Shown here: piece after piece, positions 2,621 through 38,014 of the stretch | Layout: each line of letters opens with the position of its first letter | Numbering within the stretch: position 1 is the first letter of the stretch | Virus record (IMG/VR): IMGVR_UViG_2718218361_000004 | Source: a virus | Lineage: Duplodnaviria > Heunggongvirae > Uroviricota > Caudoviricetes | Length of the DNA stretch: 38,014 nt | Direction: 5' to 3' (one strand) | The notes under the pieces: generated by a model | Seen by the model: the letters and a program-made list of their open reading frames with translations, nothing else | Database searches by the model: none | Told to the model about the DNA's origin: nothing | Made by a program: the position numbers and the translations under genes

Positions 2621-2732
2621 AACTGAAGTTGCCCTGAAAATGAAATTTTTTTGCACAACCGCAGAACTTTTCCGCAGGGCATCAGTCTTAATTAGTGCCA
2701 CTGCTTTTCTTTGATGTCCCCATTTTGTGGAG

Positions 2733-2775
2733 CCCATCAACCCCGCCATTTCGGTTCAAGGTTGATGGGTTTTTT
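2733..2775 (+). terminator. rho-independent terminator of ybjL
   Basis: Stem CCCATCAACC (2733-2742) pairs with GGTTGATGGG (2760-2769), followed by a T-run at 2770-2775. Confidence 0.6.
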
Positions 2776-2855
2776 GTTGCCTGAAATTTAAGCTGTTTAA
2801 AATCATGATGTTAGAAGCATTGTTTTTTAACGATGGCGACAAAATGGCGGCAGCG

Positions 2856-25570: not shown

Positions 25571-26266
25571 TTAAAATTTAGCAAGCTCCATATAAGAAAT
25601 AGCATCATTAAAGACCGACACATGTTCTTCAGGAATTATTGCCGAGGCTCCACTAGTTAGTTCAAAGCTAAATTTAGAGTCATGATATAGCCCCCCAACT
25701 TTTATTTTATCGAGTTTAAAATCATTATCCAAAACAAATTTTTTCAAATCATTTAAAGCATCTCCACTAGAATTCAGCTCTAAACACGCCCTTGTTTTAT
25801 CAGTAACAGGAACATTTGAAACTTTCACCTTTGAGATGGCGAAGACTTTGACTCCAAACTCCTCCCTAATTATTTTCATAAAAGCCTTGAGATCTACCGT
25901 CAAGTTTCCATAGGCAACATTTACCCCTTCACCTTTTGACAAGAAATCAATAAAAGACTTAACTGTCTTCGGAGGATTATAAAAAGTCAACAAACATAAT
26001 TTATTACTTAATGTTTGGATAGAAAAACCAATCTGTTCAAAAACAATCCTTTCGAACTCTAAAATATCACCAAATGGATCAGAAACTGGCTCCAACATTA
26101 TAGTTTTTTTATTAAAAGTCGCAGATATTCCATTGTGAATAGTTTCAAACTTAGTAAAACCAGCACCAATAGCATCAGAATAAGGGGTGTTTTTGATAAA
26201 ATCAAAGATCGCTTCAGAACTGGTTCTGATCTTTAATCTCATCCACTTTAATCTTAACTGTGACAT
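25571..26266 (-). CDS. cargo operon gene C, hypothetical protein
   Basis: 231 aa from the ATG at 26266 with AAGGAG 5 nt upstream; AT-rich; no recognisable motif by eye. Confidence 0.7.
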   Translation of the reverse strand: MSQLRLKWMRLKIRTSSEAIFDFIKNTPYSDAIGAGFTKFETIHNGISATFNKKTIMLEPVSDPFGDILEFERIVFEQIGFSIQTLSNKLCLLTFYNPPKTVKSFIDFLSKGEGVNVAYGNLTVDLKAFMKIIREEFGVKVFAISKVKVSNVPVTDKTRACLELNSSGDALNDLKKFVLDNDFKLDKIKVGGLYHDSKFSFELTSGASAIIPEEHVSVFNDAISYMELAKF

Positions 26267-26285
26267 ATCCACTCCTTATGATGAA

Positions 26286-27350
26286 TTAGCTAATTTCCAT
26301 TATAATAGAATAAGCTCTATTTTCAATTAATTTATTAAATCTATCGGTTTCTCTAGCTGAAAGCTTTTGAGGTTTACTGAAATATTGACCGTTAGACTTA
26401 TATTTTTTCACTCCTTTTACTAAATATGAAAAATTAGTACAGTTTAGTGGATCTCCGAATTGAGCTTCGAGTTCATAAATATCTGGGTCTGCTAGTTTCT
26501 CTTTAACCTTCCATTTTATTTTCCAGATATAAAAGCCCCTATCATAAAGATCACTAAGTTCATCAGATTTAAGAACTCCCTCTCCTTTCAGAGATGCTTT
26601 TGACACATGAACTCCAGTTTCAGTATTTCCCTCTTCTGCTTCTATTGTTTCAGGTTTTGGATGATATACATAAGCATCCGTAACATCGTCTAATTCATAT
26701 CCATCTAGGCTACGGATTAATTTATCGAAAAACAGTGTCCTAACATCTGCGGAGCTATTATGAGCAAGAGTAATTTCGTTTAATTTTAAATCAAGATTAC
26801 TGTCATTATCTTGTTCACTCTGAATCGAAATTATATGCCCGAGGAGGAGATCTTCATAATCTTTGAGATTCTCGTTATCGGGACGACGGATGCTATAACC
26901 TTTATCAATAGGCTCGATTTCAATTAAAGCTTCTTTATTTACAGCCTGCTTAAAATCGCTTTTACTATAATTGGTCGATAGATATCTTATATCTATAAGA
27001 ACTCGAGAACCATCAATAATAATTTTACAATAATCATCCTGAGCAGTTATTTCTTTTTTTAACTTCTCTGCTGCCACTATGATATCGTCCTTAGTGACAC
27101 TGGATTCAATTCTTACACATGTATTTTTTTCAGCTCTTGTCTGACCTCCGAGTAATGTTGCTATCTTCTGATGTTCATAATAATCATGAGTCATCCGAGA
27201 GTAGTTTTTGGCTAGATCTTTTCTAGGGGTTTTTTTACAAATAATAGTACCTCTTTCCAAGAAAAGATCCTGTATTTCATTTAATGTAATCTGCTTTTGA
27301 TTCAAAGCATCACATAAAGCCTTGTCAGTTACACTATGAATATTTTTCAT
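26286..27350 (-). CDS. cargo operon gene B, hypothetical acidic protein
   Basis: 354 aa from the ATG at 27350 with a GGGAG Shine-Dalgarno; its ATG overlaps the stop of gene A (ATGA). Confidence 0.7.
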   Translation of the reverse strand: MKNIHSVTDKALCDALNQKQITLNEIQDLFLERGTIICKKTPRKDLAKNYSRMTHDYYEHQKIATLLGGQTRAEKNTCVRIESSVTKDDIIVAAEKLKKEITAQDDYCKIIIDGSRVLIDIRYLSTNYSKSDFKQAVNKEALIEIEPIDKGYSIRRPDNENLKDYEDLLLGHIISIQSEQDNDSNLDLKLNEITLAHNSSADVRTLFFDKLIRSLDGYELDDVTDAYVYHPKPETIEAEEGNTETGVHVSKASLKGEGVLKSDELSDLYDRGFYIWKIKWKVKEKLADPDIYELEAQFGDPLNCTNFSYLVKGVKKYKSNGQYFSKPQKLSARETDRFNKLIENRAYSIIMEIS

Positions 27351-28411
27351 TTCGGCTCCCAAGAAATAACCTCAGAAGAAAAGAATTCTTTTACAGTAGA
27401 GACAACTTTGACATCCAGATCTTCAAGTCTCTTTTTAGCCTCTTCATCCAGTCCATACTCATGAACATACTTTTCGATCCCACGCTGAAAATGCGACATA
27501 ACTCTATTATCTTTCTCACGATACGCCAATCTTATTCTAATTTTATTTATACCATCTAAAATTTGATAATTAGAAAGCAAGTCTAGCAAATAAAAGAATT
27601 CATTATCGCTATTACCTTTTCTATTGTAATATATAACAAATCCCTCTGGATAAACCATTTCCTCAATACCTTTAGCCCTATTGAATTTATAAACAGGACC
27701 ATGTTTAATAATCATAAATGGTGATAACAAAACTTCAATAGTTGCAGGAAGGTATTTTTCAGTTACAGCAACCTTATGGAAAATAAGTTGAGGATAATAG
27801 AATCCATAATCCTCATCTGGAAATTCTTTTTTTGCAATTAAGTCATTCATATCATTCGTTACTGCCAACATATAATTAATAAGAAATGGATCAATTATAT
27901 GAATTTGCTGACCAGCACATAACGGAATCTTTTCTAAGTTTACAGCCTTATCTCTCCTTCCTTTAGTAGGTTTAGGAGGATTAAAGAAATCATAAAAATC
28001 ATGTTGCAATTGATTATCATGATTAAAAACAAATAATAAACCTCGAACTTCGAAATCAATTTGAGAAAAGTTATATTTTTCTGACCATTCCTGGCTATAT
28101 CGAGCACAATCAATTGTTTTTGCTAAAGACTCTAATGCAGACTCTATCTTTGTTGCATTAATAGAACCAGCCTTATAACTTTTCAAATCAGTATTTAAAT
28201 AAATAATTTTATTTAAATATGGATCTTTATAACTAAATACCACATCCACTGGGTGTGTGTGCTTTTGTTTTTTACCTTCAGGCTTATGTTTTGTTTCATT
28301 ATCACAAGAGAAATCTTGGTCACAGGGGCCATGCTGTTGCCACTTAAAACGACTCATAAGATCGTTAGAAATGCGTTTTGCTAAGTCTTCAATAGGGCCA
28401 TTCTCTGCCAT
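27347..28411 (-). CDS. cargo operon gene A, hypothetical protein
   Basis: 354 aa with AAGGA Shine-Dalgarno. The N-terminal region has a possible PD-(D/E)xK-like arrangement (PVDVVF…NTDLKSYK), which is an inference only. Confidence 0.7.
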   Translation of the reverse strand: MAENGPIEDLAKRISNDLMSRFKWQQHGPCDQDFSCDNETKHKPEGKKQKHTHPVDVVFSYKDPYLNKIIYLNTDLKSYKAGSINATKIESALESLAKTIDCARYSQEWSEKYNFSQIDFEVRGLLFVFNHDNQLQHDFYDFFNPPKPTKGRRDKAVNLEKIPLCAGQQIHIIDPFLINYMLAVTNDMNDLIAKKEFPDEDYGFYYPQLIFHKVAVTEKYLPATIEVLLSPFMIIKHGPVYKFNRAKGIEEMVYPEGFVIYYNRKGNSDNEFFYLLDLLSNYQILDGINKIRIRLAYREKDNRVMSHFQRGIEKYVHEYGLDEEAKKRLEDLDVKVVSTVKEFFSSEVISWEPK

Positions 28412-28446
28412 TTCATTTCCTTACTTTTGCAGACAAATCTCATTGA

Positions 28447-28475
28447 AAGATAAAGGTAAGCTTTTTGGGTTGCAA
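28447..28475 (-). promoter_or_regulatory. candidate sigma70 promoter of the cargo operon
   Basis: On the minus strand TTGCAA (28470-28475), 17-nt spacer, TATCTT (28447-28452), about 30 nt upstream of the gene A Shine-Dalgarno. Confidence 0.4.
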
Positions 28476-28509
28476 GAACTTTGGACTTGATGTGAGAAGC
28501 TTAACGCGC

Positions 28510-28528
28510 GCTCGTATCCCCGCCACGC
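28510..28528. other. candidate cos (cohesive-end) site
   Basis: Minus strand reads GGCGTGGCGGGGATACGAG. The first 13 nt match my recollection of the 186/P2 cohesive end (GGCGTGGCGGGGAAAGCAT / GGCGAGGCGGGGAAAGCAC); it lies in a GC-rich block between the tum module and the cargo operon. From memory only. Confidence 0.4.
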
Positions 28529-28574
28529 CTGCCCGCTTTATGCAGTGGTTTTCATGCACCTGCATGATCTACGC

Positions 28575-28598
28575 AAAAGCCCGCCAGTTCTGGCGGGC
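28575..28598 (-). terminator. rho-independent terminator of the SOS (tum-like) operon
   Basis: GCCCGCCAG / CTGGCGGGC palindrome followed on the minus strand by TTTT, downstream of the DinI-like gene. Confidence 0.55.
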
Positions 28599-28733
28599 CT
28601 TAGCAAAAACGATCCTCAAACGATCATGCGATCTCATGCGGCATAGACATGCACTACAGAGCTAACGCCTCGCAAGGGCTCGTTGTTCAACCTTGCTGAC
28701 GCCAGAAGCAAGTTCAGACGCCAGCAACGTTTC

Positions 28734-28967
28734 TTAATGCAGCCAGCTGTCGTCTTCCCACACTTTCTGCATAATTTTCATCACTTGTTTTCTTTCTTCG
28801 TCCAGTTGCAGTCCGGTAAGTTCCACACCGTTAGAGCTACCTTTGCGGATACGAATTACCGTTTTGGGATACAGGGGGCGCAGGTTGCGGTAAAGCTCGG
28901 ACTCCAGAGCGTCCAGGGTAGACTGGCTAATCTTCTGCTCTTTATCGATCATTATTTCAATGCGCAT
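28734..28967 (-). CDS. DinI-family protein (C-terminal Tum-like module)
   Basis: 78 aa from the ATG at 28967 with a GAGGTG Shine-Dalgarno; MRIEIMIDKEQKISQSTLDALESELYRNL…QKVWEDDSWL resembles E. coli DinI. Confidence 0.75.
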   Translation of the reverse strand: MRIEIMIDKEQKISQSTLDALESELYRNLRPLYPKTVIRIRKGSSNGVELTGLQLDEERKQVMKIMQKVWEDDSWLH

Positions 28968-28977
28968 AAAAGTCACC

Positions 28978-29166
28978 TCAGCTGATGACATCCATTGAGC
29001 GGTTGTATTCGTGGGTTCTGATTTTTGCCATGAGTTCATCTGTTAGTTCAGAAACCCACTGCAGGGCCAGCCCCTTCTCTTCATCACTACACTCACTAGC
29101 CGCTACAAGCTTAAGAAAAAAATCAATGCGCTGGAGCTTCAAAGACTCCAAAAAATAGTCCTGCAT
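28978..29166 (-). CDS. small SOS-controlled protein (possible Tum N-terminal antirepressor module)
   Basis: 62-aa ORF with a strong AGGAG Shine-Dalgarno, directly downstream of the LexA box and upstream of the DinI-like ORF in another frame. Confidence 0.55.
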   Translation of the reverse strand: MQDYFLESLKLQRIDFFLKLVAASECSDEEKGLALQWVSELTDELMAKIRTHEYNRSMDVIS

Positions 29167-29206
29167 CTTTCCTCCTATGACACCAAAGCAATACTGTATA
29201 CATAAC

Positions 29207-29249
29207 CACTGTTTATATTTACAGTATATAATAATCTTACTGATGTAAA
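29207..29249 (-). promoter_or_regulatory. SOS promoter with LexA box (186 p95/tum-like)
   Basis: caCTGTttatatttACAGta at 29207-29226 fits CTGT-N8-ACAG with an AT-rich spacer; on the minus strand a TTTACA -35 (29244-29249) and a -10 overlapping the box. Confidence 0.7.
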
Positions 29250-29318
29250 ACGTTTTTTTACGTTCATCAGCCTGATATGCCTGGTATTATTAAGAGCACG
29301 AATTGTTAACCCGCGTAA

Positions 29319-31733
29319 TTAATACAGATCCCGCCACTTATCATCTTCCTGCAAACGCTGGTTCCGATAGAAGATACGCAGGCCTGCTCCTGACGGAATA
29401 CTGCCGCCGCGAAGGAGTAAACCGACCTCTTTCTCGCTGCCATCAAATCCTCTGGACTTCAGCTCATAGACGAGCTGCTGTCGCTGATGGTCTGTAATTC
29501 GCTGTTTGTAGTCTTTACGCCGTTTCGGTTTCACCAGGCGTAACCTTGCAGCCAGTTCCCGGCGCTCTTTTTTGCTCATACTGTGCAGGTAATCGTGCAA
29601 CTCCTTGTCATCCATGCGGGTAATGTCCGTTCTGGTATCCCCATAAGCTGATTTGTCTTTCCCTTGTTGGTTCAAATTTTCAGCAAGGGGACAGTTATTG
29701 CCACGAGTCCAAGGGGCGCAAGCGCCCTGGTCGGCTGCCGCCTCCTGAACGTCAACGGCCTTACGAACCATTTTCCACTTCACTGCATGAGTGCAGATCT
29801 TGCCCTCTGCAATGGGTGACCAGATGCCATAAATACGAATACCGTGATCGCCATAGGCGGTTGGCTCTTCGTTGATTTCATAAGCGGTTCTGATGAGGTG
29901 ATATTTGCGGGGAACCAGTACGCCGCCCTGCTTCATGATGTAGGTGGCAAAACAACCAGCATCAGCAGCAGCCAGAATGGCATCAAGGCGCGGGTTATCC
30001 AGTACCGGCGCACCTGCTTTTTTGTCACCCTGTTGCCTTGCCGCCTGACCAGCCAGCAAGCGAAGTTCACGGTAAGCCTGACGTCCCGGAATACCAAAGA
30101 AGCGGAATTGCTGAACACGATGCAGAGACGCCCAGGCATTAACGTATTCAGCGTTATCACGCAGGGATTTACCCGTTTCCTTGCTGATCTCGCCAGCCAG
30201 ACCACGCCCGTCAATGTTCTTACTGATGTATTTCGCGATGTAGCTTGTCGGCGTTCCTTTGCGCGGGTTTATCAGCTCAGATTTAAAGCGTGGACCAGTG
30301 TTATTACCCAGTTCCTCGCGGTCTTCACGGATGGCAAACTTACGCAACAATGCAGTAATGGCGCGGCGGTCTTTTTTGCGCATGAAACACAACAGGTGCC
30401 AGTGAACTGTACCGTCATGATGCGGCTCAGCCACCCGCACGCCATACCAGCGCAACCCGGCTTTGTGCATCGCCTTACGAAATGCAGCAAACATGCCGAC
30501 CAGATAATCGCTGCTTTGTCTTACCGTCGCATTTGTCCAGGTTGGGTTTGGTCTGCCGTTATTGAGCGTGGAATGGAAACGTGACGGACAGGTAATGGTG
30601 TAGAAAACGGCGCAGTCACCGCGCATTTCCGCGATAAGCTCCAGACCTTTAACACAGGCCATCATCTCATTGCGGCGGTGCGCCGGGTTGCTGCTGCTGG
30701 CGTTTACCACGTCTTCCATATCCAGCGTGTCGCCCTCTTCGTTCACCAGTTCATGAGAACGGAAAAACTCCAGTGACTTGCGGCGCTGCTCACGTTTATG
30801 CATCACGGCTTCATAGCTGACATAGGGAGATGCTTTTTTGCTGACCAGGCAGATAGCACGCAACTGCTCTTCCCGCCATTCGCAACGCATTTTCCATAAT
30901 TTCCGGTACCACCAGTCGGCGCACAACATACGCGCCAGCGAACCCGGAATGAGTTCATAGGGCACGGGTTTACGGCGGTTTCTTTTCCGGCGGAGTTGCT
31001 CAAACGCAGGCGGGATGACATCCAGACGCAGGGTTTCCGCTGCCACCTTTTCCCATGTCTTGCGGATTTCTTCTGGCTTAACGTCATCGGTGGCATACAA
31101 ATCACCACAAGCTGCATCAAGGCACATGCTCATATGCGCAGCGACAAGGGTAGACAGGCGTTTCACCTGATCCTGACTCATTTCAGGCAGAATCAGCAGG
31201 CCGTCCAGCCCTACATGGCTTGCCATAAAACGAAAAGATGCAGATAGCTGGCTGTCGCGTACATGCTCCAGTCGTTCCAGACATGGCTTAATCGTCTCAC
31301 GTAAATAGCGGGAATAAGCCTTTGGCCTGCCCAGGCTGCTGAAGTATTCAATACGTTGCATCAGCGGCTTGCTGATATGGGAGGGCTGGGCGCTGACGTC
31401 TGCCAGAATGACCATGTCCGGGTTAAAACGCTGCTGCTCATGCGCCAACTTTGCCCGGCTAATGAGCTTATCCTGCTCTATTTCGCGTTGGACAGGATCA
31501 CGGGATTCATTAAAGAAATAACGCTCCCAGACCTGATCACTCAGTGCCTCGCGGCGCAGTTGTTCCTGCTCGTTATCGGCAGCGTACAGAGTGATCAGGT
31601 TTGAAAGCGCAGAAACCGGCGCAACTTCCGCCGGGTCCAGATAAGGGTTAATGGCCTTTTTCGGGCTGTTCCATGAGAACGATGCGGCAGCCTCGTTAAA
31701 GCCGCAGCAGTTGCTCATATCGGCATGGCTCAT
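29319..31733 (-). CDS. replication initiation protein gpA (rolling-circle nickase family)
   Basis: 804-aa ORF at the P2 A position downstream of the early operon. Confidence 0.85.
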
Positions 31734-34638: not shown

Positions 34639-34763
34639 GATGCAACATTCCTCTTTTAGCAATGATTAATCAGGATGAATACTGATCGTTTGTATTATGT
34701 GAACACTGCAAACATACGATCACATCATGAAATCGTCAAGGTAAAAGTTCACTTGGAGTGACC
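34639..34763. promoter_or_regulatory. immunity switch region (lytic/lysogenic promoters and operators)
   Basis: 125-bp AT-rich region between divergent apl/cox and cI; individual promoter elements not resolved. Confidence 0.5.
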
Positions 34764-35327
34764 ATGAATTTGGAAAAAGGCGGTCGTGGGGCCATAGAGC
34801 GCATGGTTGAAGCCTATGGTTTCAAGACAAGACAAGCTTTGTGTGATCATTTGGGCATTTCTAAAAGCACCTTAGCCACGCGCTATATGCGTGATTCATT
34901 CCCGGCAGAATGGGTAATCCAATGTGCACTTGAAACCGGCACGTCGCTAGAGTGGCTAACTACTGGGCAAGGTTCAAAAGAAAGTTCACAAAAAGAAAAC
35001 ACAAAAGAGATCGAAAGGAAGATTTTATCAAGCGGAAAACTACTTCCTGATGGTTACTACATTTTCGACAACAACTTTTTGCCTGAAAAACTAAAAAAAC
35101 CTTTTGTTGTGATCGATGGCGCATCAGAGTTTATCTGTGATTCGGATTATGAGGATGTACGTGATGGTAAGTGGATCGTTGATATTGATGGCGAGGTTGC
35201 TATCAGGAATCTGACAAGACTGCCGGGACGTCGCCTAAATGTCGATGGCGGCAGCAGTTCCTTTGAATGCAAAATAGATGAAATTGATATCATAGGAAAA
35301 ATTAGAAGCGCGATCGTCAATTATTAA
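34764..35327 (+). CDS. immunity repressor CI (186 CI-like)
   Basis: 187 aa from the ATG at 34764 (GGAG 5 nt upstream); N-terminal [25 protein letters not shown]. Confidence 0.8.
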
Positions 35328-35350
35328 AATTAATGTATAAGGAAATAAAT

Positions 35351-35536
35351 ATGTTTTATAAATCTATTCATATCCTACTTATTTGTTTATTTATTACTTT
35401 ACCTATTACAAGTTTTGCAAAAAATTATCCATGTTCTGGTAAGAAAGGGGGAGTTTCACATTGTACATCTGATGGGAAGTTCGTTTGCAATGATGGAACG
35501 CCAAGCAAGTCAAAGAAAATATGTTCTAAAAACTAA
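35351..35536 (+). CDS. small secreted cysteine-rich protein
   Basis: 61 aa from the ATG at 35351 (AAGGAA Shine-Dalgarno); signal-peptide-like [23 protein letters not shown], then a ~38-aa Lys-rich part with 4 Cys; starts 23 nt after the cI stop. Confidence 0.55.
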
Positions 35537-35547
35537 GGTTGCTTCAT

Positions 35548-36879
35548 ATGAATAATGATATGACTTTTGAAAACAGAGATGAGTATAATAGAAAAATCAT
35601 TGCTGAAAAAATAATAAGCTTACTCGAGTCCCCCTTAAAAATATCCCCTATTGTTATCGATGGGGACTGGGGTACCGGTAAAACCGAATTTTCAAAAAAA
35701 TTAGCGGCATTGATTGAAAAAAATGAATCTGGGCATAAAGTAGTATATATTGATGCATTTACTGAAGATCATAATGATGCTCCCATACTTACTATAATGG
35801 CTGCAATAGTTGCATTATATCCAGAGAGTGAAAAGAAGGAATTAATATCAAAGGCATTACCAGCATTGAGATTTGGACTTAAAACTGTACTCAAAGCTGG
35901 CGCTGGGTGGATTTTAAAACAAAATGCAGATGATATTGCGGATGAATTCGAAGATGCTATTAAAGATGCGGCTAACTCAGCTATAGATGGTACTGTAGAA
36001 GCACTGCTTGATGATCATATTGAAGCAAAGAAACATTTGCTTGCTCTCAAGGAAGTACTTGCTGAACTAACTAGCGAAAATAAAATAACAATTATCATTG
36101 ACGAACTTGACCGTTGTAAACCAAGCTTTGCCATCTCTATCATCGAAAATATAAAACATGTTTTTGACACTGAAAATCTTAACTTCTTGTTAGTTGCTAA
36201 CATCTCACAATTGAAAGCATCAATAAATCATATTTACGGTGCAGGTGTTGACTCAGAAAGATATCTTGATAAATTTATAAAATTCACTTACAGCCTGCCA
36301 GTGACTTTCACTGAAAACAATTACGATAAAATTTTGGCTTCGAACTCTCATTTTAGAATGCTATGTAACGAGTCTGAAAGACTAAAAGAAATTGGAGAAA
36401 GTAGTATTCATATAGTTCAAAAATTTATCGAACTAAAAGGCTTGTCGCTACGGGAAGTTGAAACCTTATCAAGATATCTAGAAATTTATCAAATTTTATC
36501 TCAAAATAAAATCAGCAATAAATTTATACCAGGCTATTGCTGTTATCGAACCCTTGCAGTAATTCTTTATTCGTTTGGTCGTGAACTGGCCCTTAACTAC
36601 GTAGAAGATAAAATAGATGCACAATTAATAATCAATTTCTTCGGTGTTAATAGACTCCCATATCAGACAGATCAATATAACAACAACATCTACTATTATG
36701 CATTATTTGGTATAACTTATAAATATATGCCAGAAGGTTCTCCTTTACTTCCTTCTGAAAACGATGAAAAAAACAGATGGGCTGAAATAAGTGATTATCA
36801 TATTTTAAAAGGAAATGCAGGTGTAGAAGACCCTGTTAGAATATTCAAAAACACCTTAAAAGTTTTCTTGCTCCAATGA
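35548..36879 (+). CDS. KAP-family P-loop NTPase
   Basis: Walker A GDWGTGKT and KAP-type Walker B IIIDELDRC; no obvious transmembrane insert; 11 nt after the small ORF; AT-rich. Confidence 0.8.
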   Translation: MNNDMTFENRDEYNRKIIAEKIISLLESPLKISPIVIDGDWGTGKTEFSKKLAALIEKNESGHKVVYIDAFTEDHNDAPILTIMAAIVALYPESEKKELISKALPALRFGLKTVLKAGAGWILKQNADDIADEFEDAIKDAANSAIDGTVEALLDDHIEAKKHLLALKEVLAELTSENKITIIIDELDRCKPSFAISIIENIKHVFDTENLNFLLVANISQLKASINHIYGAGVDSERYLDKFIKFTYSLPVTFTENNYDKILASNSHFRMLCNESERLKEIGESSIHIVQKFIELKGLSLREVETLSRYLEIYQILSQNKISNKFIPGYCCYRTLAVILYSFGRELALNYVEDKIDAQLIINFFGVNRLPYQTDQYNNNIYYYALFGITYKYMPEGSPLLPSENDEKNRWAEISDYHILKGNAGVEDPVRIFKNTLKVFLLQ

Positions 36880-36936
36880 AATGTTTAATTGAAGATCTTT
36901 AAACATTGACCACTGTTCAAACATACAGTTAAATTT

Positions 36937-36961
36937 AGTCCTCAGACATGAGGACTTTTTT
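36937..36961 (+). terminator. rho-independent terminator after the KAP gene that overlaps the int ribosome-binding site
   Basis: AGTCCTCA-gaca-TGAGGACT followed by TTTTTT and then the int ATG at 36962; the only Shine-Dalgarno-like sequence for int (GAGGA) is in the 3' stem. Confidence 0.65.
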
Positions 36962-38014
36962 ATGGCAGTACGAAAACTCAACACAGGTAAATGGATTTGT
37001 GAATGCTACCCCGCCGGGCGCAATGGGCGGCGTGTGCGTAAGCAGTTTGCAACTAAGGGTGAAGCATTGGCTTTTGAGCGTCACACGATGGAAGAAACCG
37101 AAGCAAAACCCTGGCTGGGTGAATCAGTGGATCGTCGAACACTGAAAGACGTGGTTGAGCTATGGTTCAAACTACATGGTAAATCTCTGACGGCTGGGCA
37201 GCATGTCTATGACAAATTGCTGTTGATGGTTGACGCTCTGGGAAATCCCATTGCAACCGATCTCACCTCTAAAATGTTTGCCCACTATCGAGATAAACGC
37301 CTGACAGGAGAGATCTACTTCAGCGAAAAATGGAAGAAAGGAGCAAGCCCGGTCACCGTTAACCTGGAGCAAAGCTATCTAAGTAGTGTTTTTAGCGAAC
37401 TATCCCGCCTGGGCGAATGGTCGTATCCGAACCCACTGGAGAACATGCGAAAATTCACCATCGCAGAAAAAGAGATGGCATGGCTTACCCATGAACAGAT
37501 TGTTGAATTGCTGGCTGATTGCAAACGTCAGGACCCAATTCTGGCACTGGTAGTCAAGATATGCTTAAGCACAGGCGCACGCTGGCGAGAAGCAATAAAT
37601 CTTACCCGTTCACAGGTGACTAAATACCGAATTACCTTTGTCAGAACGAAGGGGAAGAAAAACAGAAGCATTCCCATCAGTAAAGAGCTTTACGAAGAGA
37701 TTATGGCACTTGATGGGTTCAATTTCTTTACAGACTGCTATTTTCAATTTTTATCCGTGATGGAAAAAACGTCTATCGTGCTCCCTCGCGGTCAACTGAC
37801 ACACGTTCTGCGTCATACGTTTGCGGCGCATTTTATGATGTCGGGTGGAAACATCCTGGCCTTACAAAAAATTCTCGGGCATCACGATATAAAAATGACG
37901 ATGCGTTACGCACATCTGGCACCGGATCATCTGGAAACGGCGCTCCGTTTCAACCCTCTGGCAACGCTGCCAAGTGGCGACAAAGTGGCGGCAGCGGTTG
38001 GCATTACCCCGTAA
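36962..38014 (+). CDS. int: tyrosine integrase (P2 Int family)
   Basis: N-terminus MAVRKLNTGKW… resembles P2 Int (MAIKKLDDGRY…); C-terminal HxxR…Y catalytic region (VLRHTFA…RYAHL); stop codon is the last 3 nt of the window. Confidence 0.9.
   Translation: MAVRKLNTGKWICECYPAGRNGRRVRKQFATKGEALAFERHTMEETEAKPWLGESVDRRTLKDVVELWFKLHGKSLTAGQHVYDKLLLMVDALGNPIATDLTSKMFAHYRDKRLTGEIYFSEKWKKGASPVTVNLEQSYLSSVFSELSRLGEWSYPNPLENMRKFTIAEKEMAWLTHEQIVELLADCKRQDPILALVVKICLSTGARWREAINLTRSQVTKYRITFVRTKGKKNRSIPISKELYEEIMALDGFNFFTDCYFQFLSVMEKTSIVLPRGQLTHVLRHTFAAHFMMSGGNILALQKILGHHDIKMTMRYAHLAPDHLETALRFNPLATLPSGDKVAAAVGITP

Follow-up and report, generated by a model that had tools for sequence, protein, structure and literature searches.

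A predicted SOS-induction operon of a P2-like Escherichia coli prophage, encoding a Tum-type antirepressor and a separate DinI-like protein

The IMG/VR record IMGVR_UViG_2718218361_000004, analysed here as a single stretch of 38,014 nucleotides (the window), is a P2-like (Peduoviridae) prophage of Escherichia coli of the Fels-2/DuoHS type. Two short open reading frames (ORFs) on its minus strand, between positions 28,734 and 29,249, had been described in an original prediction as an SOS-controlled, tum-like module. We conclude, with a probability of about 0.9, that they constitute the SOS-induction operon of this prophage and encode a TumA antirepressor and a separate DinI-like protein. The arrangement is already known, has been experimentally characterised in near-identical form, and is in that sense ordinary. 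Sequence features, homologies, conservation and selection were computed in this work, whereas LexA control and the requirement for the orthologue are taken from the literature on E. coli HS. The features of the operon, in the order of transcription and with stop codons included in the gene coordinates, are as follows.

29249..29244, minus strand: -35 hexamer TTTACA of the tum promoter (the p95 equivalent), read from the sequence
29226..29221, minus strand: -10 hexamer TACTGT, formed by the first six bases (left arm) of LexA box 1
29226..29207, minus strand: LexA box 1, TACTGTAAATATAAACAGTG, 17/20 matches to the consensus, core intact
29211..29192, minus strand: putative LexA box 2, CAGTGGTTATGTATACAGTA (GTG-N10-CAG), conserved in Fels-2-type relatives
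29171..29176, minus strand: Shine-Dalgarno sequence AGGAGG of tumA, five nucleotides before the ATG at 29166..29164
29166..28978, minus strand: tumA, 62-residue antirepressor homologue, phrog_698 at 3.6e-38
28973..28979, minus strand: Shine-Dalgarno sequence GAGGTGA ahead of the dinI-like ORF; it overlaps TGA, the stop codon of tumA, at 28980..28978
28967..28734, minus strand: tumB, the DinI-like gene, 77 residues, Pfam DinI PF06183 and phrog_189
28574..28600, minus strand: intrinsic terminator of the tumA-dinI operon, an 11-bp G+C-rich stem followed by TTTT

Homology and LexA control of the tumA-dinI operon

The description of the 62-residue ORF as tum-like is supported by profile comparisons. 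A TumA family profile built from 34 diverse members matched residues 6-48 of 186 Tum in hmmsearch (34.5 bits, E 8e-13 for the single comparison), and hhalign of the TumA family against the family of the 186 Tum N-terminus gave a probability of 96.7% and an E-value of 4e-10, with an alignment that is colinear over columns 4-44 in both. An earlier hhalign comparison with 186 Tum that used low-diversity alignments had given an E-value of only 0.002 and is superseded by the 34-member profile. The ORF is therefore homologous to the portion of 186 Tum that lies N-terminal to its DinI-like part, and the motif that they share is roughly E-x-h-x-h-(Q/E)-R-(I/V)-(D/E)-h-h-x-(R/K)-L-x-A-x-x-x-C-x-x-x-(D/E)-(K/R)-x-h-A-L-x-(W/L)-h-x-E-(L/I). 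TumA of the window is identical at 61/62 positions (98.4%) to Fels-2 STM2728 and to the 'tum' product of E. coli HS. An exhaustive HMMER search placed its relatives in 66 clusters at 50% identity, and all but a few of these consist of short stand-alone proteins. Searches with TumA against Pfam, PADLOC and the sequences of the PDB returned no match. An AlphaFold2 model predicts a two-helix hairpin with a mean predicted local distance difference test score of 87, for which Foldseek found only generic helical hairpins in the PDB, every one at E > 0.1.

The downstream ORF can be assigned to the DinI family. It matches Pfam DinI PF06183 at 6.6e-23 (81.3 bits, against a gathering cut-off of 24.2) over positions 1-63 of the 63-position profile, and it aligns over its full length with E. 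coli DinI (1GHH/7YWA; E 2.7e-6, pairing residues 1-75 with 1-77). This colinearity takes in the acidic C-terminal helix ending in W, where the segment ...KIMQKVWEDDSW of the ORF aligns with ...EILQETWESADDW of E. coli DinI. The ORF is 78% identical to PSP3 TumB and 77/77 identical to the E. coli HS copy. Both ORFs could thus be aligned to 186 Tum, a check that had been proposed for them, TumA at profile level and the DinI-like ORF with 41% identity to Tum residues 71-145. As originally described, the ORFs lie in different frames (the DinI-like ORF is in frame +1 relative to tumA) and each is preceded by a strong ribosome-binding site, but the second product has 77 residues rather than 78, the larger figure being the number of codons with the stop. 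The overlap of GAGGTGA with the tumA stop codon suggests that the two genes are translationally coupled, and family membership points to a possible role of TumB in binding or modulating RecA filaments.

Upstream of tumA, LexA box 1 is the sole site of the window that lies within three mismatches of the consensus TACTGTATATATATACAGTA, and no match at this threshold was found in any of 100 shuffled controls. It is placed 93 nucleotides downstream of the stop codon of gpA, the replication gene A, and it covers the -10 element, so that the near-consensus LexA box over a promoter -10 that had been proposed for this site is borne out, with TACTGT inside the left arm. Having the form CTGT-N8-ACAG, a near-consensus sequence and a position in which it would occlude the promoter, the box has the properties expected of an SOS operator of the Enterobacteriaceae. 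The -35 hexamer, 17 nucleotides from the -10, is kept in Fels-2, 813R9, SopEPhi, Klebsiella phi4.1 and Yersinia MLG42. A CTGT-N8-ACAG site is present 35-61 nucleotides upstream of the tum/tumA start in 8/8 related loci, once per locus, including those of relatives whose TumA is just 39-45% identical, and this recurrence is far above chance.

The operator probably comprises two overlapping boxes. In the putative box 2, GTG replaces CTG in the left arm, and its 16-bp core shares one base with that of box 1, an arrangement known from the double SOS boxes of colicin operons. The whole 35-bp operator (29192-29226) aligns base for base with operators ahead of colicin N and E1-like genes. A 49-nucleotide segment of the Fels-2 operator, from which the operator of the window has few differences (in box 2 and just downstream), matches sites on 1105 plasmids at 80-95% identity, with 82-93% given for the stretch of about 47 nucleotides. 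These plasmids are mostly small and mobilizable, and the matches sit about 40 nucleotides upstream of colicin genes (colicin N, E1-like). A single LexA box is found in 186, PSP3 and the distant relatives. The operator thus looks like a colicin-type double LexA box, which we regard as a mildly new lead; a full-text literature search for the operator sequence matched no paper, and an Rfam scan of 28350-29350 gave no match.

Genetic evidence is available for the near-identical copy in prophage DuoHS of E. coli HS, where either delta-tum or lexA(Ind-) abolishes induction by mitomycin C (Phollow study, PMC12055606). The delta-tum allele joins the start and stop codons of the gene, and the primer that defines it, NHR28, consists of ATAGGAGGAAAGATG followed directly by TGAGGTGACTTTTATGCGCATTG (PMC12055606). 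The two halves of this primer match the window exactly and once each, at 29178..29164 and 28980..28958. Since these positions flank the 62-residue ORF, the 'tum' gene deleted in HS corresponds to this ORF, and since both mutations abolish induction the mechanism is experimentally anchored for the near-identical copy.

Separate genes rather than a broken fusion

The original prediction allowed that the two parts of a 186-type tum gene might here be either separate or frameshifted; they are separate, and the frameshift does not hold. Among relatives the spacer from the tumA stop to the dinI ATG measures 10, 11 or 12 nucleotides, so that the relative frame is +1, +2 or 0, and the stop codon, the ribosome-binding site and the ATG are always kept. 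We counted codon changes between tumA of the window and three relatives in all three frames. In the tumA frame the ratios of synonymous to nonsynonymous codons were 20:7, 18:10 and 17:10, while over the whole ORF the other frames gave 0-5:24-25 across the three relatives (4:25 and 1:25 in the comparison with 20:7). The same is seen for tumA codons 43-62, where the tumA frame gave 10:3, 7:5 and 7:6 and the others 0-3:10-12. Since change is mostly synonymous right up to the tumA stop, and since the spacer varies, the split is not a frameshift lesion. We conclude that the two-cistron state is conserved, is under purifying selection and is the normal state.

One feature of the sequence would nevertheless be accounted for if the two ORFs had arisen by a recent frameshift in a fused 186-type tum gene, possibly with loss of activity. 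Reading back from its ATG, dinI has 25 further codons in frame before a stop is reached, and because of this open stretch a one-base deletion within 28981-29039 would produce a fusion of 143 residues, near the 146 residues of 186 Tum, and the question whether a single-base indel could restore a fused frame is to that extent answered in the affirmative. However, chance alone would leave 25 codons free of stops about one time in three, and the open stretch falls to 14 codons in SopEPhi and Klebsiella phi4.1 and to 4 in Yersinia MLG42. The changing frame among relatives that retain the translation signals, the mostly synonymous change at codons 43-62 in the tumA frame alone, and the shortness of the proteins in nearly all of the 66 family clusters speak against a lesion as well. 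Short stand-alone versions of the 186-type N-terminus also exist, some of them named 'Tum protein' by their source, and a split copy with 98% identity does function in E. coli HS. We consider a broken gene the least probable of the alternatives. Scarcely more credible is a programmed frameshift or stop readthrough that would yield a TumA-DinI fusion beside the separate products and so mimic 186 Tum. It could draw on the 62-nucleotide overlap of the two frames and on the precedent of the 186 gene, which gives both full-length and truncated, DinI-only forms, but inspection of the overlap by eye, with no pattern search, showed no slippery heptamer, the relative frame varies among relatives beyond what any single recoding mechanism would allow, strong independent ribosome-binding sites are present, and distant relatives have tumA without any dinI. 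Both the frameshifted pseudogene and programmed recoding were rejected on cluster lengths, spacer variation and the codon-change pattern.

The distant members of the family also indicate which part of the module is essential to it. Three members with 39-45% identity, found at four loci (one member occurs at two places), were sampled. At all four loci a small gene directly follows gpA, a near-consensus LexA box lies 35-49 nucleotides upstream of it, and no dinI follows. Two ESSI-2-type phages and a Yersinia phage with the annotation 'tum protein' likewise have a tumA-like gene and no dinI. A LexA box with tumA but without dinI is thus present at seven loci (L006-L009, L013-L015), which represent six distinct relatives. 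In PSP3 (L005), a TumB that is close to the DinI-like ORF of the window is combined with a TumA that is only faintly similar. From the loci that lack dinI and from the mixed pair in PSP3 it follows that the LexA box and tumA are the core of the module and dinI is an optional passenger; tumA and dinI assort independently, with the fusion in 186 as the exception. The candidate that dinI forms the core was rejected by the seven loci.

The same loci bear on the suggestion that the DinI-like protein, for example through RecA, drives induction and that the 62-residue ORF is an unrelated small gene. The DinI-like ORF is the only one of the two to have a Pfam family, and the 62-residue ORF is a 'hypothetical protein' in RefSeq with no PDB or Pfam match. 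Yet it is this ORF that has profile homology to the Tum N-terminus, that is conserved with the LexA box in relatives without dinI, and that alone was removed by the HS deletion that abolished induction. The annotation of PSP3 and a personal communication cited in PMC3121763 also place the antirepressor activity in the upstream gene, and dinI deletions in the Gifsy prophages are without effect (PMC3121763). We therefore think it very improbable that the DinI-like protein is the inducer.

The CI repressor, the terminator and the cargo

The wider setting of the operon includes the following features.

34758..35327, plus strand: cI, 186-type immunity repressor of 189 residues, presumed target of TumA, phrog_4 transcriptional repressor
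29319..31733, minus strand: replication gene A (gpA), 35% identical to 186 A
28411..25571, minus strand: three-gene cargo, PADLOC Hp1, Hp2 and Hp3 at E 1e-64, 2e-39 and 1e-10
2700-2778, plus strand: RybB small RNA, Rfam, 105 bits

The tumA-dinI operon lies between gpA and the gpA-gpQ cargo hotspot. In its lysis-lysogeny region the prophage resembles 186 and not P2, with Apl/Cox-like and CII-like genes accompanying cI. The repressor shares 37% identity with 186 CI across 172 residues spanning both domains, and the phage would accordingly be classed as carrying a 186-type CI and not the P2 C-type repressor. This agrees with the original expectation of an SOS-inducible prophage that resembles 186 rather than P2, as does the requirement for the orthologue and for cleavable LexA in HS. 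The surrounding DNA is that of E. coli: a 1-kb query comprising tumA, dinI, the end of gpA and the terminator is 100% identical to strains S21 and H14, and the RybB gene (rybB) adjoins ybjL and the ogr end of the prophage. We call the prophage DuoHS-like because this rybB/ybjL chromosomal neighbourhood matches that of DuoHS in E. coli HS; it is a DuoHS-like prophage with other cargo and another CI C-terminal domain.

CI of the window is 71% identical to DuoHS CI overall, with residues 1-62 identical and the C-terminal domain at about 57%. Because the C-terminal domains differ, the compatibility of TumA with this CI is something that we infer. Near-identical TumA proteins co-occur with CIs that are even more divergent than that of DuoHS, as the following identities to the proteins of the window show.

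813R9: TumA 100%, CI N-terminal 74%, CI C-terminal 42%
Klebsiella 4LV2017 group: TumA 100%, CI N-terminal 74%, CI C-terminal 32%
Cartapus: TumA 100%, CI N-terminal 60.5%, CI C-terminal 27%
Fels-2: TumA 98.4%, CI N-terminal 64%, CI C-terminal 31.5%
E. coli HS DuoHS: TumA 98.4%, CI N-terminal 100% (residues 1-62), CI C-terminal about 57%

If TumA binds CI directly, it would have to recognise a conserved surface of CI, most likely in the N-terminal, DNA-binding domain. We put forward only tentatively, as a proposal more doubtful than not, that the Fels-2-type module joins a colicin-type double LexA operator to a generalist TumA antirepressor. A double operator would imply a high damage threshold and all-or-none induction, and a generalist TumA would not be immunity-specific and could cross-induce heteroimmune P2-like prophages in the same cell. 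The double operator and the mismatch of TumA and CI are the two mildly new leads of this work, and both may have gone unremarked so far.

Several results weigh against the identification of the operon, in addition to the differing CI C-terminal domain. Pairwise BLASTP of the 62-residue ORF with 186 Tum gave no alignment, so the homology between TumA and Tum is one of profiles, and the hhalign match to PSP3 TumA is weak (E 0.002). A generic sigma-70 scan did not call the tum promoter, because TACTGT matches TATAAT at 3/6 positions only. As for the part played by the DinI-like protein, induction of Gifsy prophages was unaffected by non-polar deletion of dinI (PMC3121763).

The operon ends at an intrinsic terminator, which had been placed at 28575-28598 and is recovered here as a hairpin at about 28599..28576 with a T-run; it has a free energy of -27.6 kcal/mol (z = -5.2), and 0/200 shuffled sequences were as stable. 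Homology to other prophages runs past this hairpin and ends at about 28505, the junction of backbone and cargo, and phage 813R9 has the same terminator segment with a different cargo. Being part of the backbone common to 813R9, the terminator is thus an element of the tum operon, with the cargo inserted behind it. The cargo consists of three genes, which we take, from the DefenseFinder naming, to be the 'Rst_3HP' of the P2 gpA-gpQ hotspot. It has a G+C content of about 30-33% against about 50%, which suggests an imported unit. A three-gene defence system without predicted function has been described from the P2 hotspot (PMC9122126; Rousset et al. 2022), and two papers on P2 defence hotspots make no mention of tum, DinI, LexA or SOS.

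The suggestion that cargo expression is tied to DNA damage is not supported in this prophage, where a strong terminator of the conserved backbone stands between dinI and the cargo junction. LexA-controlled transcription that reads into the Rst_3HP-like cargo and makes it damage-inducible is unlikely, though less so than the alternatives weighed above. The cargo is on the same strand as tumA-dinI, the interval from dinI to the cargo yielded no consensus sigma-70 promoter, orf97 of 186 lies downstream in the p95 operon behind the partial terminator t95a, and the gene after dinI starts about 60-113 nucleotides downstream in Fels-2 and in E. coli HS, with no obvious terminator. Set against this are the strength of the hairpin in the window, its location in a backbone that is shared with a differently loaded phage and upstream of the junction, and the AT-rich composition of the cargo. 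After the dinI stop, the sequences of Fels-2 and E. coli HS are unrelated to that of the window (L004 2933-2993; L023 11052-11166). Since their next same-strand gene is close to dinI with no evident terminator between, SOS-coupled cargo is more plausible in Fels-2 and E. coli HS than here.

A second cargo lies between cI and int (35333-36879, plus strand) and encodes a cysteine-rich small protein of 67 residues with a hydrophobic N-terminal stretch, and a protein of 446 residues that matches PADLOC PDC-S20 at E 1e-171 and, more weakly, PifA and QatA. Relatives have a 'chromosome segregation ATPase' at this position. Upstream of int (36906-36964, plus strand) is a promoter-like sequence, TTGACC, 18 nucleotides and TAAATT, whose spacer is a LexA-like CTGT-N8-ACAG site, CACTGTTCAAACATACAGTT. 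It is followed by a hairpin whose 3' arm holds the GAGG ribosome-binding site of int, with a T-run adjoining the ATG. The CTG-N10-CAG and the hairpin, the latter with compensatory changes, are kept in KP12, 4LV2017 and 813R9, and the site could place int under SOS and translational control.

Proposed mechanism and known counterparts

In the lysogen, LexA bound to the operator (probably two overlapping boxes) that covers the -10 would repress the tum promoter. DNA damage would lead to RecA-stimulated self-cleavage of LexA and to transcription of tumA-dinI, and the single transcript would give two separately translated proteins, TumA and TumB. TumA would bind the 186-type CI, presumably directly, and prevent its binding to operators, so that the lytic genes are derepressed; 186 Tum is reported to sequester CI (Shearwin et al. 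1998, as cited in PMC3121763). TumB, probably translationally coupled, would bind RecA filaments and tune the SOS signal, as an accessory and not as the inducer, and transcription would end at the terminator hairpin. For LexA repression, damage-triggered transcription and CI sequestration this scheme draws on homology and on the genetics in HS.

Damage to DNA should then induce this prophage by way of an antirepressor, a property that it would share with 186, Fels-2 and DuoHS but not with P2. Such inducibility bears on the spread of the prophage and its anti-phage cargo (Rst_3HP-like, PDC-S20) under antibiotics that trigger the SOS response. The work also points to a gap in annotation. No Pfam family covers the antirepressor, and RefSeq lists it as a 'hypothetical protein', with an occasional mislabelling as 'levan regulatory protein'. 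The 1-kb query around it is matched in 1280/5426 complete E. coli genomes, and in 696 of those 1280 at a coverage of at least 80%. Beyond annotation, the finding confirms textbook-level phage biology.

The closest counterpart is DuoHS, whose tum gene (ECHS_RS04495, old tag EcHS_A0919) gives a TumA identical at 61/62 and a DinI-like protein identical at 77/77 positions. Operator, ribosome-binding sites, location after gpA and the ybjL-side chromosomal neighbourhood are all as in the window, and its need for tum and cleavable LexA in induction (PMC12055606) is what is predicted here. It differs in its CI, which shares the N-terminal 62 residues but has another C-terminal domain (71% identity overall), and after dinI it has other cargo and no terminator-bearing segment. 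Fels-2 of Salmonella LT2 (STM2728/STM2726.1) has a 98.4% identical TumA, a 100% identical DinI and the same double-box operator, but its cargo is different and its CI far more divergent (N-terminal 64%, C-terminal 31.5%). The tum genes of Fels-2 and PSP3 were described as split by a stop codon, with the antirepressor activity in the upstream PSP3 gene (Lemire et al. 2011, PMC3121763, citing Bunny et al. 2002 for the split); the title of Bunny et al. 2002, as cited in PMC3121763, attributes the lethality of a lexA null mutation to Fels-2. In PSP3, as here, two genes stand under a LexA box, and GenBank annotates them as an antirepressor half, tumA ('similar to 5' end 186 tum; UV induction of prophage'), and a DinI half, tumB ('similar to dinI and 3' end of 186 tum'). 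TumB of PSP3 is 78% identical to the DinI-like ORF, but its TumA represents another subtype with only faint similarity (hhalign E 0.002), a stop codon separates two genes that share one frame, and the LexA box is single.

Phage 186 shows the same organisation in a fused form. Its p95 promoter (TTCACA, 18 nucleotides, TACTGT) has a LexA site that starts at the -10, and its 146-residue Tum is encoded after gene A, acts on a CI-type repressor, and has an N-terminal region homologous to TumA and a C-terminal region homologous to the DinI-like ORF. Unlike in the window, the two parts are fused in one ORF, from which internal starts also give DinI-only products (the 186 record states that these 'modulates SOS induction'), the LexA box is single, and identity is low, at 41% in the DinI part and detectable only at profile level in the TumA part. 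The dinI-gfoA/gftA operons of the Gifsy prophages (PMC3121763) are also LexA-controlled and pair a DinI homologue with a small antirepressor directed at a non-cleavable repressor, but dinI comes first, in reverse of the order here, and the phages are lambdoid. The colicin double SOS boxes (Lu and Chak 1996, as cited in PMC2994835) align base for base with the operator of the window; they drive a toxin and lysis operon, whereas here the operator, with its putative second box, would govern a phage antirepressor.

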